Shown piece after piece: positions 1,862 through 37,232 of a DNA stretch of 42,950 nucleotides. Within the stretch, counting starts at the first letter, position 1; each line of letters starts with the position of its first letter. The translations under genes and the position numbers were made by a program. Under the pieces are notes generated by a model, which saw only the letters and a program-made list of their open reading frames with translations, had not been told where the DNA came from and ran no database searches. The DNA comes from a virus (lineage: Duplodnaviria > Heunggongvirae > Uroviricota > Caudoviricetes): the IMG/VR virus record IMGVR_UViG_2870479586_000005; one strand, given 5' to 3'.

Positions 1862-3496
1862 CCCGCCGCCGCTGGTTTATCAAACATCGCGCCACGATTG
1901 TACGAACTCGCAGCCTGTCTCAGTCCATCGAGCACCCCCGACGCTGCAGATTGTTGTATTGACTGCGGATCTGTCGCACCGACAATATTGATTTCGATTT
2001 TATTGTTTTGCTCCGGCGCAGGTGTCGAGACTGCCTGCTTCAACGTATCAATATTTAACGTCGACGAATCCAGTGCTGCAGGCGCGGTATTTTTATTTAC
2101 CATCCCGGATAATGGATTAACAAACGCGAGCATTGATTCTGCCTGAGATTTTGCCTGTTCTTGCCGTTCTGGATGCCGCATATTTTCGACAGCCTCTTCG
2201 GCTTTTGCCTTCGCAATATTATCAGCAGTCAATCCAGCGTTCGGTGAATATTTACCTCCCGAATCCATAAACTCTTGATATGCCCGATTATATTCGTCAT
2301 TATAAGTTTTCTGTTCTTCATCTGATTTTTCATCCGGAATAAGCCACTCCAGTTTCTTTACGACAGCCCATATAATCTTCCCGAATTTGACGCAACCTTC
2401 TCCAAAATTGACGATGCCATCCCACATTTTTTTCATATTTTCTGGTTTTACCCACTCAGTAATTGTGCTGACAAAACCACCCTGATTATCCTTAAACCAG
2501 GATGTAAATGTTTCACGTACTGAGTCAAACGTCGGCGCGAGTTCCCCCCGATTTTACCGAGTGTATCTGCAAGTCCCGACGTAATAGAGCCCCACAGATT
2601 TGTCACTGATACATGCGCACGCGCCGCCCCTTCCGCACCCTCTTTTGTTAACAAATTCGACTTTTGCGCGTCAGACATTGTCTGTTCCCAGCTTTTACCC
2701 GTCGCCTTCATATACGTCATGATCTTATTAGCCTCGCCCCCATGAGCTGGTCAGCGAGGCTCGCCGCTTGCTTCTCATCTTTCATTTCAGAGATGCGACG
2801 CATAACCTCATTAAACTGTTTTTCCCGATCCCAGCCAGCCATTCGTTTTTTCGTCAGGCCAATTTGAAATAACATGGGATTCAGGCTTTTTTCGTTTCCG
2901 ATTTCGCCGATTTTATTTGTAAGTTCTTCAGACAAATCCCCGATATTTTCGCCGTTCAGGCCCGCGGCTTTACCAATATTTTCCCACGCAGCGTATTTTT
3001 CGACGCCAACGCCGTAGGACTTCGCCAGACCGAGTTTTTCTGACGTCTCTGCATTCATTGCCAGCGAACCAGCTGCAGCACCGCCAATGAGCCCTGCCGC
3101 GCCAAGTGTCCCCCATTTGATACCCCGCCCCGTAGCCCTCACCGCACCTGCGGCGGCTCGTCCGCCCCATTTTGCAGCTCCTTTTGCGCGACCCGTCCAC
3201 TTCTCCAGCCGCTGTTTTTTAGCAAGTTGAGTATTCAGCGCCTCCTGGTCCTGCGTTGTCGCTTTTATCCGACGGTCCAGCTTTTGATACTGAGCAGATA
3301 AATCAGAAACGTCTTTACCTGCCAGTTTCATTGCTGCGATTTTGTCTTTTAATTTATCCTGACTTTTCGTTAATTTCCCGACAGTAGACGACGTCTGCCG
3401 AATCGCATCATTGAGTTCTGTTGTACCGCGACGAAACGACGGGTCTATTCGCCCACCGAATACAACCTGCGTTTTAAAGTTTTGAGAAATAGCCAT
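1858..3496 (-). CDS. tail tape measure protein (gpT-like), interrupted by two apparent 1-nt frameshifts
   Basis: Three consecutive minus-strand ORFs (2717-3496, 2448-2720, 1858-2436) with coiled-coil, Gly/Ala-rich tape-measure character; frames rejoin if one base is added in the C5 run at 2737-2741 and in the C6 run at 2544-2549. Confidence 0.7.
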
Positions 3497-3604
3497 CGAT
3501 TTTCATGACCTCGTTTACATAGAAATTAAAAACCCGGTACGGCAGGTCCATTTGCGTATCGGGCGGGATGGCAAGTTTTTTCGCAATAAACGGAATCAGA
3601 ATAA

Positions 3605-3886
3605 CTATATCTGATGTCGGTCTTTCGGGGGCTTTACCAGTTCGTTAAACGCGGCCTCCATTTGATCGTAATCGCACGCAGGCAGTGCATATAAATCCTC
3701 ACGCTCCAGATTTGCCAGGCGCGCCAGCATTGTCGCTGTCCGCTCTTCAAGACCACTTTTATCGTTACTGAACATAATGCGGTCGCGTAATTTTGGTTCG
3801 CGAATAGTAATTGTATCGCGGCTCTCACCCTTAATAATAAACGGGCGAGAGAGCGTAATAGTCATACTGTCTAATAATGATTCCAT
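3605..3886 (-). CDS. tail assembly chaperone (gpE-like)
   Basis: 93-aa ORF between tube and tape measure genes, the conserved chaperone position; no in-frame slippery heptamer found for an E-prime product. Confidence 0.45.
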   Translation of the reverse strand: MESLLDSMTITLSRPFIIKGESRDTITIREPKLRDRIMFSNDKSGLEERTATMLARLANLEREDLYALPACDYDQMEAAFNELVKPPKDRHQI

Positions 3887-23044: not shown

Positions 23045-23224
23045 TTACGCGTCAGGGGGTGTAATAGTATATCCAGCTATTTCTGCCAACTCGAGAAACG
23101 CCATCAGGCTGGCAATCCGTTCATCATCAGTCAGAACACGCACACCAACGATGTGTCCGTCCTTACGCTTGATAACAGCCCGGCATGTTTCCGGTAGTTC
23201 GCCTATAGATTCTTGAATATTCAT
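23045..23224 (-). CDS. small hypothetical protein (59 aa)
   Basis: ATG at 23224 preceded by an AGGGGG Shine-Dalgarno; below the ORF-track length cut-off. Confidence 0.25.
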   Translation of the reverse strand: MNIQESIGELPETCRAVIKRKDGHIVGVRVLTDDERIASLMAFLELAEIAGYTITPPDA

Positions 23225-23375
23225 GTCTTCCCCCTAACGCCATTGCCTGTGCATTTATACAGTATTTTATGGCATTTGTCATAACGCCAGATACAATGAG
23301 GGAATAATGAACAATTATATTCACGTCGTGAATTTTATTAAACGGTTTTATAGGGGATTAAACCGTTTATGGTCA

Positions 23376-24135: not shown

Positions 24136-24414
24136 TTATGAGGCCATACCGTAAGCTTTTTTATGCATCCCATGGTCATAGCCCATATTATATGCTTCAA
24201 AAGCATCTTTATGACGGACATGCCCAGCCTGGCTTTCGGGTAAATCACCTAAAACAGAGTCATCAACCGCACGCGGAACGCCGATTAATGCATGCCACAT
24301 ACCTTTATCATAGGCACATCCACAACACTTGTGCCGCCCAACGTTACCCTGATTTGCAGAAAGAACATCAAACATACTGTCGTGACGATGTGACTTTTTA
24401 CAGATGTGTTTCAT
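24136..24414 (-). CDS. hypothetical Cys/His-rich small protein
   Basis: 92-aa ORF (CKKSHRHD...HKCCGCAYDKGMWH...) with its own downstream terminator; weak Shine-Dalgarno. Confidence 0.35.
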   Translation of the reverse strand: MKHICKKSHRHDSMFDVLSANQGNVGRHKCCGCAYDKGMWHALIGVPRAVDDSVLGDLPESQAGHVRHKDAFEAYNMGYDHGMHKKAYGMAS

Positions 24415-24882
24415 TCATTGACCTATATCATTTTCGGTAATGAATGCTTTACACGGGATCCCGGTTGAGGTAATCTCCCAAACCGAGATCTCAACGAAAG
24501 CATTAACCGATGTTTTTGTATGGCCCTGACAGTTGGCGCTGTCAGGGCTTTCCCTTTGATGCGACTCTAAAAACTTCGCAACCTCCAGATCCTATCCAGG
24601 ACCAAGAAAAACTTCAATGAAAAGATCAAGTTAGATCTGTATTTTTTTACAGATGTAATAAATCACACATGTAATAGCCTTCCCTTTCCGTTCTCATCTG
24701 GCCTCTTGTGGCATCCATTTTTTTAAGAAACATATGGACGCCTAAAAAACCACTAATGTCATGATTATCATGTATGTTTTTACTGGAAACATTGAGCCAT
24801 CCACAATGCAGCGTAAAAAGCAAGCAATTCACAAGATTTTAAAGTGATTTATCTGGAAGACTTTACTACTAACAGTTAATAT

Positions 24883-24927
24883 CGTACCAGAAGTGCAGAA
24901 TTTGCACTTTCACAGGAAAGTGGTACG
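24883..24927. promoter_or_regulatory. nested palindrome / candidate operator upstream of the peptidase gene
   Basis: CGTACCA (24883-24889) pairs with TGGTACG (24921-24927); AGTGCA (24892-24897) pairs with TGCACT (24903-24908); lies 55-100 bp upstream of the ATG at 24982. Confidence 0.4.
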
Positions 24928-24981
24928 GAACATGTTGTCTATATTTCGACCAACAATCGTAATGCAGTAACTGGAGGAGCT

Positions 24982-25470
24982 ATGGCTACCAACCCAAGAG
25001 AGCACGCCCGGCGAGTGCTGGACACGTTCTGGTGCGGGCGTGGTTTCCCTGTTGATCCAGCGAAAATTGCTCACGACATGGGATTAGATGTTTTTATTAC
25101 CGATCTTCCTGGGAAAGTTTCTGGCGCACTGATTAAACAAAAAGATCAAGATCCAGCGATCTTTCTAAACAGTGATGACAACAAAGTTCGTCAACGTTTT
25201 TCATGTGGGCATGAGTTGGGGCATTACATCGCCCGGCAAGCATCGCATAGTGATGAATATGAGTACGTTGATTTACGTGGCGAAACCGCAAGCGCCGGAA
25301 CGCATCCTGATGAAATTTTTGCGAACAAGTTCGCAGCAGAACTTCTGATGCCGGTTGATGAGGTCAGAAAACTGCACGCTGACGGCCAACCAAGTTATAT
25401 AATGGCGCATTATTTTGGCGTATCTGACGATGCGATGACTTATCGTTTAAAGAACTTGAGGTTGGGGTAA
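24982..25470 (+). CDS. ImmA/IrrE-family Zn metallopeptidase (HExxH)
   Basis: 162-aa ORF; HELGHY motif within a DUF955/ImmA-like context; GGAGGA Shine-Dalgarno upstream. Confidence 0.75.
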   Translation: MATNPREHARRVLDTFWCGRGFPVDPAKIAHDMGLDVFITDLPGKVSGALIKQKDQDPAIFLNSDDNKVRQRFSCGHELGHYIARQASHSDEYEYVDLRGETASAGTHPDEIFANKFAAELLMPVDEVRKLHADGQPSYIMAHYFGVSDDAMTYRLKNLRLG

Positions 25471-25479
25471 CGCTTTAGA

Positions 25480-26085
25480 ATGCCATCGGATGACGATTTT
25501 AACAGCCGTTTCAAACAGGAAGTTGCACGCCGACTGAAGGATTCCCTCAACCTACACCGTCAGTTAGCAGAAGAGGTTGAGCCGGAGGACGATGAAACTC
25601 CGGTTCAGTCCCCTGATGAAACTTCACCTCTGCAAAAGATTTCGCACGACCCCAAAAAACCATCTGTCCGTATTCACGGAATAGCCAGAAAAAGAGCTGC
25701 CGAAGCTCGCAAAATGGCTGTAGCTGCGTCTAGCAAAAGAACTCCAACTGCTACACCATCTCAACAAGTCACCCGTACTGAGAGTAAAATCTTGACCGAG
25801 TTCACATCTGTGAAACAGGTGAGTTCACTTGATACCGAGCATGAGCGCAAACAACTCAACAACAAAGATTTTGAAGCTGAAATCGCTCTAAAAAAACGCT
25901 ACGGAAAATGGTTCCTGATAATCCTTGCTTGCCAACTTCTGATAATGAATGGGGTATTTATTGCCGACGGCGCAGGTAAGCTGGAATTTGAGGATTTAAC
26001 ACTACAGTTGTACATGGGCGGTACTTTGACAGAGGTATTCGGCCTCGTGCTGGTCGTGACAAAATACCTTTTTAAACGCAAGTAA
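25480..26085 (+). CDS. membrane protein with charged N-terminal region and two C-terminal TM helices
   Basis: 201-aa ORF starting 10 bp after the peptidase stop; C-terminus WFLIILACQLLIMNGVFIA and GGTLTEVFGLVLVVTKYLF are hydrophobic helices. Confidence 0.65.
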   Translation: MPSDDDFNSRFKQEVARRLKDSLNLHRQLAEEVEPEDDETPVQSPDETSPLQKISHDPKKPSVRIHGIARKRAAEARKMAVAASSKRTPTATPSQQVTRTESKILTEFTSVKQVSSLDTEHERKQLNNKDFEAEIALKKRYGKWFLIILACQLLIMNGVFIADGAGKLEFEDLTLQLYMGGTLTEVFGLVLVVTKYLFKRK

Positions 26086-26509
26086 CTCTCTCGGTCCAAC
26101 AGTCTTTCGAAAGCCCTGATCAAAGGGCCTTGATAAATTAGCAGTGCGTTGAAAACAGATAGTTATTCCCATCAGTTCCAACGTAATACACATCAAAAAA
26201 ATCACCATTCTTTTGCTCTACGTCAACACCTACCCTTAAAAAAATAATTCTCCAAGAATGAGAAAGTTATTGTGTGTATTAGATAAGATATGAGCTGACA
26301 CATCTATGGCGTGGAGCCAAACCTAATATGACAGTCCGCTCTGTGCCAAGAGCGAACATTACAAACACACTAAAATTTATGTTTGTACTTCGCTGTAGCC
26401 ACCTAAAAGTATTATTGCGGGTGGTTTCGTGACAATGTTAGATATTCTTCATTTTGAATTGATTACTGAATTAAGATAAAACCACCCGAATTAAAACTAT
26501 CAAAAGTAT

Positions 26510-27391
26510 CTATGGTTGTTCATCACTCTCTTCTGAAAGTATTTGTACTACTTGTCCACACTCTCCACATACTACGTGTAATTGACTATCTTCTTCGGAC
26601 TTGAAAATCTCACTAACTAAGCTATGACAGTTAGGGCATTTTATCTCGTTATCAAAACCTATGAATTTAAGGAATAAGTTTTGAATTAATGAAACTGCAG
26701 TGCAAGTGAGTATAAGGCAAATTTTAGCGTCAGGAATGTTTTTGTTTGAAGAGTGCACCGTCTCTGCGGAAAAATCCCATGCAGACTCAATCGTTGAGCG
26801 GCAATATTTTCTGAGACTTGAGTTTCGTTTTCCTGCGGCATACAACCCAATAATAATTCGGCAAATATTTTTAAAGTCAGCTGCTTTAATATTTTCTTTT
26901 TTTAATATATCCTCATGAGTTTTATAAAGGTGAGCAGCAAGCTCAACCATGCTCTCTCTACAAGTTAGTCCAATACTTTGAATATCTTCAGGGGCCTTAA
27001 TATTATTCAGAGCAACAGCAGAAGCATTTAACCTCCGGCTAATAGAACGAAGCATATCTATATCTAAAGGTAACTCATCAATAACATGTTTGAAATCATT
27101 GCTATGTCTTGCTTGTAGTCTTTGAGTTATACCCAAATGAAAAGAATATGCTTCATCAGCAGAAAAGAAAAACTCATTTTGAGTGTATAAGTTTAAAGGA
27201 ACGTTTTCACCTTCAGCAACCCACCAGTTACCATCATTTTTTGTTCTGACGTTCCAAATGTTAACCTCAAAACCTAAATCATTAAATGTTTGCTCAACTT
27301 GCATGTTTTTTATGTTTTCTATATTTTGAGTTTTTAAATATTCAGTAATTCTTTTCTCAGCATCGATTCTGTATTCTGGTGTCATGTGCAA
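26510..27391 (-). CDS. hypothetical protein with C-terminal zinc ribbon
   Basis: 293-aa ORF in AT-rich DNA; C-terminal CPNC...CGEC four-Cys motif. Confidence 0.55.
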   Translation of the reverse strand: MHMTPEYRIDAEKRITEYLKTQNIENIKNMQVEQTFNDLGFEVNIWNVRTKNDGNWWVAEGENVPLNLYTQNEFFFSADEAYSFHLGITQRLQARHSNDFKHVIDELPLDIDMLRSISRRLNASAVALNNIKAPEDIQSIGLTCRESMVELAAHLYKTHEDILKKENIKAADFKNICRIIIGLYAAGKRNSSLRKYCRSTIESAWDFSAETVHSSNKNIPDAKICLILTCTAVSLIQNLFLKFIGFDNEIKCPNCHSLVSEIFKSEEDSQLHVVCGECGQVVQILSEESDEQP

Positions 27392-27449
27392 TCCCTTTTA
27401 ATAAGATACTAAAAGTAAAAGCGCATTATAGCATAACACATACAATGCG

Positions 27450-27695
27450 TTAATGCGTATGCTTGTGCCCTGTAATGATTTCAAAATGAACGTTTGCATA
27501 CAACTGTTTTTTGATCTGGTTGTATTGCAACAGAATGATTTCCACTGCTCGTTCATAGCTGATCTTCAGTTTAGTTAGCATGTCCGTTCTGTGCCTTTTA
27601 AGTTCATTCTTGCCATACTTAGCCGACTTGAATGCTATTTCTTCTATCACTTTTTTAGTTGGCATATTGGGGCTAGAGTTCCGTTCCTCGCTCAC
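27450..27695 (-). CDS. small hypothetical protein
   Basis: 81-aa ORF (GTG start in track) just upstream of the 293-aa gene; start uncertain. Confidence 0.3.
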   Translation of the reverse strand: MSEERNSSPNMPTKKVIEEIAFKSAKYGKNELKRHRTDMLTKLKISYERAVEIILLQYNQIKKQLYANVHFEIITGHKHTH

Positions 27696-27862
27696 GGCAG
27701 ACCTTAAGCTCAGTTAGTTCGTCTGCTCCGTGCCAGAGCGAACGTTGTAAACACAACATTGCTTTAGTCGACAGGGGCCAATAGGCTACTGCGTACCCTG
27801 TGCTAGAGTAAGTATCAAATAGGTATTATCCATGTATATGACTGCTCGATGATGCATCATAA

Positions 27863-28942
27863 TCACAAACGTTCATGATCAAGACTGTTTTCATCATTAT
27901 TTAAGTCATTAAGCATTTGAAGTGCGTCACGAGTACGTTCATAATTACTTTCAGGGTATAATCTAAACTTCATATTTTCCAAATTAATTAATTTTCTTTT
28001 TAATTTGAAGGAATCGTTAGAAAGTGACATTTCGTAAAAATCAATATCCCCCTGTCTGGATTGTAATGCACTCATAACGGAAAACTTAGCAGATTCTTTG
28101 AACCTCAAACCGAATGTAACATCGCTTAACCGAAATGGTGAGTTCTGTAAACCTTGATTATTAATAACTCGATATTCATTTTCATATTTCCAAGAAGGAG
28201 CTTTGCTGAGAAGAATGACCCTATCAATCTCTTTTTTGGCAGTATTCTTTATATTATCATTGCTGCCAAATAACATATCATGAACTTGTTGAGTTCTAAT
28301 AAATCGATTCCCTTTGTAATCAACTGGATGGATATCTAAAGAGTCATTTTCAGAAGTATCATATCCAATACAAAATCCCTTATGTTGATCAGCATAATGC
28401 GACCACATTAAGGGGCAGTTAAATTTTCTTGCTAATGAAAGAACACCAACCTCATAATTTTTTAGCAAGTATCTTTTAATATAAAAACTGGCGCTAGCAT
28501 AAAAATCATCACCATAATTATCAACATCCCACGAAATATTATCAATTAATTTTCGAGCTTCGCTTTCACCTAGCATTTCAATTTTCTCTAATGTCCTTAG
28601 ACCTTTATATTTAATTTTTTTTGCTGCTTTCGCTAGTTCCTTTTGATGATTTTCTTTTACTAATTTATGAAGGATAGAGTTCAATTCATTGACATTATTG
28701 ATGTCGTTTAACACGGAAGGATTACAATCCAAAGGGTCATTGAATGTTGTTGGATCAGCAAAATACAGTCTATCGCTTACAAGCAAGTCAAGACTATCAA
28801 CACTAAAGCTTTTATATTTATATAATCGAGAGGGAATATTCTGTATCATCACTTTTATCTCATAAATTTTTTTGATATTATCTGCCAATTCTAGCCCCAT
28901 GGGCAATAGCAAAATCGAAAAATACTCTCTACGTAAGGGCAA
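27863..28942 (-). CDS. DUF2971-like protein (candidate defence-associated)
   Basis: 359-aa ORF in AT-rich DNA; RLYKYKSF...LYFADPTTFNDPLDC...PLMWSHYADQHKGFCIGYD...KYENEYRV motifs recalled as DUF2971 hallmarks; start may be at an internal Met. Confidence 0.5.
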   Translation of the reverse strand: MPLRREYFSILLLPMGLELADNIKKIYEIKVMIQNIPSRLYKYKSFSVDSLDLLVSDRLYFADPTTFNDPLDCNPSVLNDINNVNELNSILHKLVKENHQKELAKAAKKIKYKGLRTLEKIEMLGESEARKLIDNISWDVDNYGDDFYASASFYIKRYLLKNYEVGVLSLARKFNCPLMWSHYADQHKGFCIGYDTSENDSLDIHPVDYKGNRFIRTQQVHDMLFGSNDNIKNTAKKEIDRVILLSKAPSWKYENEYRVINNQGLQNSPFRLSDVTFGLRFKESAKFSVMSALQSRQGDIDFYEMSLSNDSFKLKRKLINLENMKFRLYPESNYERTRDALQMLNDLNNDENSLDHERL

Positions 28943-36818: not shown

Positions 36819-37232
36819 ATGAGGATGAAAAATTTGATGCTTAGCGACCGTTTATCTCAAAGACGCAAACAGCTTGGTCTAACCCAACAACAGCTTGCTG
36901 ATATGGTTGGAAGATCGAGTGTGAGCGTTTTTAAATGGGAAAGCGGACAAAATGAACCAAAGGGCCAGAACTTGTTGGCTTTGGCCAATGCACTCAAGTG
37001 TTCTGCCACATGGCTGCTTTTTGGTGACGAAGACCAGGCGCCAACTCCGGTAGACGAATTACCAACAGAGCTGGATTCACGTCAAAAAAGATTGTTAGAG
37101 TTATTTGATTCATTACCCGAGTCAGAAAAAGAAAAGCAACTAATTGAATTAGAAGATAAAGTTGAAAACTTTAATCGTTTATTTGAAGAGTTACTGGTTA
37201 CCAGAAAGAAACTAACCCCCACCAAAAAATAA
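36819..37232 (+). CDS. XRE-family HTH repressor (CI analogue lacking S24 peptidase domain)
   Basis: 137-aa ORF; HTH (LTQQQLADMVGRSSVSVFKWESG) then a coiled, acidic C-terminus; no Ser/Lys autoprotease motifs seen. Confidence 0.7.
   Translation: MRMKNLMLSDRLSQRRKQLGLTQQQLADMVGRSSVSVFKWESGQNEPKGQNLLALANALKCSATWLLFGDEDQAPTPVDELPTELDSRQKRLLELFDSLPESEKEKQLIELEDKVENFNRLFEELLVTRKKLTPTKK

Follow-up and report, generated by a model that had tools for sequence, protein, structure and literature searches.

What can a zinc peptidase of the M78 (ImmA/IrrE) family act on when the gene coupled to its own encodes a membrane protein? This question is raised by two genes of a virus of the Caudoviricetes, IMG/VR record IMGVR_UViG_2870479586_000005, whose DNA of 42,950 nucleotides (nt) is called the window below. 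On the + strand of the window, the gene of a peptidase of 162 amino acids (aa) is followed by that of a membrane protein of 201 aa. The CapP/CapH, IrrE/DdrO and ImmA/ImmR switches share the peptidase fold and the catalytic motif with this couple, but in the window the partner of the peptidase is a membrane protein and not a transcription factor. Comparison with the closest E. coli chromosomes identifies the window as a lambdoid prophage located next to the tRNA-Leu/Cys/Gly cluster and pgsA. By homology with a pair of genes studied in Gordonia phage Kita, the two-gene cassette is quite probably a toxin-antitoxin or phage-defence module of the RosmerTA type, carried by this prophage as an accessory gene pair ("moron").

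Relationship of the two genes to the RosmerTA pair of phage Kita

The peptidase was compared by tblastn with 50,697 phage genomes. One partial contig of an E. coli phage ranked first, followed by a group of Gordonia phages that includes Kita with its gp32 (E 5e-31), and Kita is the best phage match of the peptidase outside E. coli. In pairwise comparisons, the peptidase is 43.3% identical to Kita gp32 over 157 of its 162 residues (E 1.4e-41), and residues 144-199 of the membrane protein are 31.6% identical to residues 57-113 of Kita gp33 over 57 residues (E 4e-7). The motifs NG.FI in the first transmembrane segment (TM1) and T..EV.GL...(V/I)T..LFK in the second (TM2) are common to both membrane proteins. 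Because matches between transmembrane segments can be compositional, and because a profile-profile comparison (hhalign) of the narrow enterobacterial alignment with gp33 gave a probability of only 55%, this link was tested with a hidden Markov model (HMM) of the family. An exhaustive profile search with the enterobacterial alignment retrieved 709 clusters at E<=1e-3 (182 of them at E<=1e-10), most of which are proteins of 100-150 aa. With the HMM made from 184 family members, Kita gp33 obtains 43.7 bits (E 1e-9 for Z=1e6, bias 0) and two Kita-like actinobacterial homologues an E of about 1e-12; no score was obtained for the small membrane proteins encoded after the related Che9c peptidase and after that of a P2-like phage. 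The pairwise matches and the family HMM score of gp33 indicate that both window genes are, by sequence, homologues of the tested Kita pair.

In Kita, gp32 (YP_009301393.1) is the antitoxin RmrA_D25 and gp33 (YP_009301394.1) the toxin RmrT_D5, which have been validated as a RosmerTA pair by Ernits et al. 2023 (PMC10440598). Produced alone, RmrT_D5, whose sole annotation is "transmembrane", stops growth, abolishes macromolecular synthesis and leaves E. coli depolarised and permeabilised, and the native Kita operon shields E. coli from some BASEL Myoviridae (PMC10440598). As in Kita, where gp32 (178 aa) is an M78 domain only, the window peptidase consists of this domain alone, without helix-turn-helix (HTH); in both cases the peptidase gene comes first, the two genes are tightly coupled and the position is phage-borne and accessory. 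By its sequence and arrangement, the cassette belongs to Kita-type RosmerTA (D25:D5), a known kind of system and not a new one. The first-pass annotation had seen in these genes a protease coupled to a membrane effector, possibly of the abortive-infection or exclusion type; as to the type of unit, probably a toxin-antitoxin or abortive-infection pair in an accessory slot of a prophage, it came close, but profile and sequence searches place both genes in the characterised RmrA_D25/RmrT_D5 system, an outcome which the annotation itself had named as refuting. The two couples differ in their hosts, Actinobacteria for Kita and Enterobacterales for the window, and in the size of the toxin, which in the window has 201 aa instead of 119 aa, including a conserved N-terminal helix and some 80 residues of disordered linker that the Kita toxin does not have. 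The Kita genes overlap by 4 nt (2944-3480 and 3477-3836 in the locus L010), whereas the window genes are separated by 9 nt (25471-25479); the coupling described in the first-pass annotation was thus found, with a gap one nucleotide shorter than the 10 bp given there. A literature search with the E. coli protein accessions returned no paper on these proteins.

The peptidase matches Peptidase_M78 of Pfam (PF06114; E 7.7e-18, 64.9 bits for a cutoff of 22) over residues 32-157, which is its only Pfam domain. H77, E78 and H81 of the HELGH motif and the downstream E111 are invariant in 18 toxin-paired peptidases and in 34 homologues. With the domain, the HExxH motif and the downstream glutamate all present, the protein is classified by its sequence as a member of family M78. 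Its AlphaFold2 model is confident (predicted local distance difference test, pLDDT, 89.8; predicted template modelling score, pTM, 0.86) and the best fold matches in the PDB are CapP (7t5t) and IrrE/PprI (3dte, also 8sln). These targets of 240-330 aa are aligned over the peptidase domain only, with a template modelling score of about 0.4 relative to the target, and they all have a second GAF-like domain, which is missing in the 162-aa protein. In CapP, the GAF domain binds single-stranded DNA (ssDNA) and controls a cysteine-switch loop. The toxin-paired peptidases form a clade of single-domain proteins of about 160 aa, in which PVDP, RxRF, HE(L/I)GH, ExxANxFAAxLLMP (the motif that contains E111) and a C-terminal VSxxAxxxR show no or almost no variation.

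The 201-aa protein belongs over its full length to PHROG 5346 (function unknown); no match was found in Pfam, in PADLOC (E up to 0.1), by sequence search of the PDB or by tblastn against the 50,697 phage records. Hydropathy analysis (Kyte-Doolittle, averaged over 19 residues) located hydrophobic segments at about residues 143-165 (2.25) and 175-193 (1.56), and residues 1-140 contain 26 K+R and 24 D+E. An AlphaFold2 model built on 40 homologues is in agreement with the hydropathy and predicts a helix at residues 5-32, a linker at 33-113 and two further helices at 119-164 and 173-197. The length of the linker varies from 0 to about 100 residues among the homologues, and TM2 and the C-terminal tail are near-invariant in the Enterobacterales alignment; full-length relatives were found in Enterobacterales only. 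A juxtamembrane motif, D..LKK.Y(A/G).W, is located at about residues 128-143, and several members of the family, of merely 86-110 aa, consist of little beyond this motif and the hairpin.

RosmerTA as first defined (Millman et al. 2022; RmrA/RmrT of PADLOC) resembles the cassette in that the RmrA models match the peptidase domain, with E down to 5.8e-12. However, these models have 357-400 positions and are matched in their central peptidase part only (positions 166-266 of 363, for example), and the RmrT models do not match the window membrane protein. In the absence of a full-length RmrA match and of any RmrT match, the pair is placed by sequence outside this wider PADLOC definition. The capP model of PADLOC is likewise matched over the peptidase domain only (E 2.4e-25, positions 3-151 of 242). 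According to the NetFlax study (PMC10440598), antitoxins of this class often have a small N-terminal HTH as well, unlike the window peptidase. As the first-pass annotation had stated, no HTH gene is attached to the pair: no HTH-encoding open reading frame (ORF) precedes the peptidase gene within 540 nt, where the largest + strand ORFs encode 20-36 aa, and no HTH gene adjoining the pair was found in the window or in the other loci examined, unlike in ImmA/ImmR, IrrE/DdrO and CapP/CapH. A hidden HTH partner was also considered and rejected, as the upstream + strand ORFs of the window do not exceed 36 aa and the 77-aa gene found upstream in ST131-type loci has no Pfam domain. PD-lambda-2 (Vassallo et al. 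2022, PMC9519451) is another E. coli defence system with an ImmA/IrrE domain in a toxin-antitoxin-like operon, but it is made of three genes (a HigB-like toxin, an Xre-peptidase fusion which is itself toxic and a third component) and it has no membrane protein.

Pairing and distribution of the cassette

The presence of the pair in other genomes, a check proposed in the first-pass annotation, was assessed by calling ORFs on all fetched loci and comparing them with the HMM of the toxin and with the sequence of the peptidase. An M78 gene of about 160 aa was found directly upstream of the toxin gene and on the same strand in all 32 loci having upstream DNA, with a gap of -17 to +11 nt; the one locus without partner has its toxin gene at the edge of the contig, where the upstream DNA is missing. 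Two further distant members (L044 and L047) are also paired with an M78 gene, and the single orphan toxin gene that was found has a degenerate sequence. The two proteins diverge in step across the loci, the peptidases being 43-89% and the toxins 32-81% identical to those of the window.

Among 5426 complete E. coli genomes, 453 (about 8%) carry the cassette, always on the chromosome, and its relatives occur in prophages of Salmonella, Klebsiella, Serratia, Enterobacter, Cronobacter and others. Most matches in the 453 E. coli genomes begin at about 24720-24726 and stop at about 26354-26361 of the window; the pair is a mobile unit, a block of 1.6 kb. In the window, it is located between replication/ORF6N antirepressor genes on one side and the DUF1367-DUF1364-Q genes on the other, and it shares its strand with the repressor and integrase genes; the early-right operon runs in the opposite direction. 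In a Serratia prophage, the pair separates the late antiterminator gene from the lysis genes; in Salmonella it adjoins an integrase remnant at the border of an island, and in another E. coli lineage it is found at the end of a prophage, outside the integrase gene; one pair adjoins an MmeI-type restriction-modification gene. The cassette thus sits in variable slots, where prophages store accessory genes. Since the toxin models of PADLOC miss a cassette which is found in about 8% of the complete E. coli genomes, clinical strains probably harbour in it a defence or toxin-antitoxin locus that goes uncounted. The cassette is of practical interest as being common in Enterobacterales, where it appears unannotated. 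It also adds a member to a known family without founding a new one.

In nine viral contigs of IMG/VR (L035-L043), only decayed 3' remnants of the toxin gene were found, corresponding to its last 25-58 codons and with internal stops in some of them, in keeping with a harmful gene. A protein of 130 aa (P0101) was also noticed, in which the N-terminus of an M78 peptidase (FPIDPVTLGRELGIKIIDV) is apparently fused in frame to the juxtamembrane motif and the transmembrane hairpin of a toxin; judging from its sequence, it probably results from a deletion within a pair.

The peptidases of Mycobacterium phage Che9c (gp32, locus L011) and of the P2-like phage NC_070905 (gp41, locus L012) are homologous short M78 proteins, 45% and 37% identical to that of the window, and they too precede a small protein with hydrophobic segments. 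However, these small proteins (Che9c gp33 and NC_070905 gp42) have no detectable similarity to the window toxin or to the family HMM. The presence of partners unrelated to the window toxin behind peptidases of this clade suggests that the antitoxin has swapped toxin partners.

Proposed mode of action and rival explanations

By transfer from Kita, the product of the downstream gene would be the toxin, anchored by its C-terminal two-helix hairpin. When unrestrained, it would assemble in the inner membrane, where the membrane potential would collapse. The product of the upstream gene, a minimal zinc peptidase of the M78 family translated from the same transcript, would be the antitoxin and would hold the toxin harmless in the uninfected lysogen. 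Upon infection by certain phages, this restraint would be lost, and the resulting depolarisation would abort the infection. For the window pair itself, this scheme is sustained by the homology to the Kita pair, an order and sizes of the genes like those of Kita, the strict pairing throughout the family and the location in accessory slots of prophages and in defence islands. The toxicity of the membrane protein, its neutralisation by the peptidase and the defence are carried over from the Kita experiments.

Several points weigh against this assignment, among which the modest hhalign probability reported above. The three properties are transferred from a homologue whose toxin core is just about 32% identical. 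The enterobacterial toxin has an N-terminal extension of 110 residues which is absent from Kita gp33, so that its regulation may differ from that of Kita; the N-terminal helix and the linker may add a level of regulation in Enterobacterales. The PADLOC models miss the toxin and the RmrA models match the peptidase domain only. In Kita itself, the neutralisation of RmrT_D5 by RmrA_D25 is incomplete and the authors had no reliable model of the complex (PMC10440598). Finally, the repressor of the prophage, an Xre-type protein of 137 aa without autocleavage domain, is of the kind that M78 peptidases classically cleave.

This last point is the starting point of a different explanation, in which the peptidase would be an ImmA-like anti-repressor: by cleaving the short repressor of the Xre type it would induce the prophage, while the membrane protein would be accessory or unrelated. 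The repressor (36819-37232) is composed of HTH_3 and a short C-terminal part without S24, like the substrates ImmR, DdrO and CapH, and the Serratia prophage bearing the cassette also has an HTH_3 repressor, of 132 aa. However, the peptidase gene is about 11 kb away from the repressor gene and never adjoins an HTH gene, it is linked to the membrane-protein gene in 32 of 32 scored loci, and the Kita homologue is an antitoxin. In addition, the pair is found with different immunity regions, and at the Salmonella island edge and the restriction-modification site no phage repressor gene is present within the DNA examined. This strict linkage to the toxin gene and the pairs located away from phage repressor genes make an anti-repressor role unlikely. 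We consider as even less probable that the inner-membrane protein is a superinfection exclusion factor, which would block the entry of the DNA of other phages without killing and whose level would be set by the peptidase. The cassette is indeed an accessory unit of the prophage, on the strand that carries the repressor and integrase genes, and the near-invariance of TM2 across genera would fit the binding of a conserved host membrane protein; yet the Kita homologue alone depolarises and permeabilises the cells, the family is also found outside prophages and the decayed remnants of the toxin gene suggest that it is costly to the host.

The first-pass annotation had imagined a protease gating by which the effector is armed. 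In such a gasdermin-like scheme, the full-length membrane protein would be inert and, on a phage or stress signal, the M78 peptidase would cut off its N-terminal region and free a pore-forming hairpin. The conserved N-terminal helix and the long disordered linker, present in the enterobacterial proteins and not in the Kita toxin, could be understood in this way; the catalytic residues of the peptidase are invariant, and the known M78 peptidases (ImmA, IrrE and CapP) are signal-activated proteases. But the Kita toxin is toxic without the peptidase, which lowers its toxicity, and the window peptidase is without sensor domain, the ssDNA-sensing GAF of CapP being absent. Moreover, the family members of 86-110 aa have little or no room for an inhibitory N-terminal domain, while the family keeps its peptidase partner. 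Arming by the peptidase is therefore unlikely, and the direction of the gating is probably the reverse of that first proposed: the membrane protein would be toxic alone and the peptidase would neutralise it.

In the preferred toxin-antitoxin scheme, neutralisation probably needs proteolysis, as we infer from the invariance of the catalytic residues and from the fact that neither partner has a DNA-binding domain and that there is no HTH to cleave. The most plausible target for recognition or cleavage would be the juxtamembrane motif of the toxin, as it is the sole cytosolic segment conserved in the whole family and the shortest members hold little else but the hairpin. A more precise version, which is conceivable but which we regard as doubtful, is that the M78 peptidase is a catalytic antitoxin: it would act by continuously cutting the cytosolic juxtamembrane segment of the toxin, and not by binding or by gene repression, and a phage product blocking or diverting the peptidase would set off the depolarisation. 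If true, this would be a mode of toxin-antitoxin action where the toxin is proteolysed by its own antitoxin, and it would explain the RosmerTA pairs without HTH, a point left open by the Kita study. As a counterpart of the Kita pair native to E. coli, the cassette is a place to ask how a protease without HTH restrains a membrane toxin and which phage signal releases the toxin.

Features of the leader and of the neighbouring DNA

The features of the cassette are listed in the Table.

Table. Positions in the window of the cassette and of its features.
Feature	Position	Strand	Remarks
Mobile two-gene cassette, approximate limits	24720..26360	+	leader, peptidase gene, toxin gene and ~270 nt of 3' flank
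Nested palindrome / stem-loop in the leader	24883..24927	+	ends 55 nt before the start codon
Shine-Dalgarno sequence GGAGG	24973..24977	+	4 nt before the ATG of the peptidase gene; read from sequence
Gene of single-domain M78 (ImmA/IrrE) zinc peptidase, putative RmrA_D25-like antitoxin	24982..25470	+	162 aa
Codons of the catalytic motif H77-E78-L-G-H81 (HELGH, residues 77-81)	25210..25224	+	
Codon of the conserved downstream E111	25312-25314	+	presumed zinc ligand
Gene of membrane protein, putative RmrT_D5-like toxin	25480..26085	+	201 aa
Toxin N-terminal helix, residues 5-32	25492..25575	+	AlphaFold2 pLDDT ~90; conserved among Enterobacterales members
Toxin disordered linker, residues 33-113	25576..25818	+	pLDDT ~50, without secondary structure
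Juxtamembrane helix and TM1 (119-164), 8-residue loop, TM2 (173-197)	25834..26070	+	conserved core of the family; AlphaFold2 model

The nested palindrome of the leader, which the first-pass annotation took for an operator, is a real element. Its outer arms CGTACCA/TGGTACG enclose an interior of 31 nt, its inner inverted repeats of 7 nt are AAGTGCA/TGCACTT and CACTTTC/GAAAGTG, and all three repeats are perfect. The RNA fold has an energy of -18 kcal/mol (z -4.24), and 0 of 200 shuffled sequences were equally stable. The second of the inner repeats is not perfect in the other E. coli loci. The Salmonella cassette has retained and lengthened the outer arms (TCGTACCAG/CTGGTACGA) around a diverged interior of 32 nt, with a fold barely above chance (z -1.85), and the palindrome is absent from the unrelated leaders of the Serratia, E. 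coli 155-aa variant and metagenomic cassettes. The element is thus lineage-specific, limited to E. coli and Salmonella, and a conserved operator was rejected, as the outer arms are kept in the Salmonella cassette only. An operator needs a binding protein and the module supplies none, neither protein having a DNA-binding domain, so that this part of the first-pass annotation is without support; a stem-loop in the mRNA leader fits the palindrome as well as an operator does. A scan of positions 24300-26600 with Rfam gave nothing meaningful. The sequence GGAGGA, at the Shine-Dalgarno site, is invariant across four aligned enterobacterial leaders.

A perfect core of a LexA box, CTGT-N8-ACAG (CTGTATTTTTTTACAG), was observed at 24637-24652, in overlap with the -35 hexamer of a sigma-70-like site, the best one upstream of the pair. 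This site (TTTACA at 24646, a spacer of 18 nt and TGTAAT at 24670; 10 of 12 matches) is directed at the peptidase gene, from which it is separated by about 300 nt. Just 4 of the 28 loci checked, all from E. coli, have the box, and a deletion of about 70 nt removes it in ST131-type loci. Control by LexA was rejected as a core part of the module: with such a limited occurrence, the box probably does not belong to it. A second perfect core (CTGTGCATTTATACAG) is present at 23247-23262, 22 nt upstream of a minus-strand ORF of 59 aa (23045-23224) which belongs to phrog_340 (function unknown); there, the LexA box is downstream of a promoter-like site, TTAATA-16-TATAAT. Together with the short repressor without autocleavage domain, this second box suggests that the prophage is induced by an SOS-controlled antirepressor scheme.

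Between a minus-strand ORF of 92 aa and the pair, a strong terminator-like hairpin of the + strand (12 pairs followed by TTTCCCTTT) was noted at 24522-24549, and no evident + strand gene ends at this hairpin. In ST131-type loci (L003, 8625-8858, E. coli Ecol_AZ159), the 92-aa ORF left of the cassette is replaced by the + strand gene of 77 aa mentioned above, which belongs to phrog_5550 (function unknown). The DNA right of the cassette also varies with the strain. In the window, a low-GC segment (33-37%) of the minus strand at 26510-28942 encodes a protein of 293 aa, which has a zinc ribbon at its C-terminus, and a DUF2971 protein of 359 aa, the latter matching the candidate defence family PDC-S31 of PADLOC (E 1e-50). 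The same slot is occupied by a pair of AAA ATPases in strain GF131 and by a GIY-YIG nuclease in strain 22KM0354, and since its content differs in this way between strains, the slot right of the pair is a hotspot for variable cargo including candidate defence genes.

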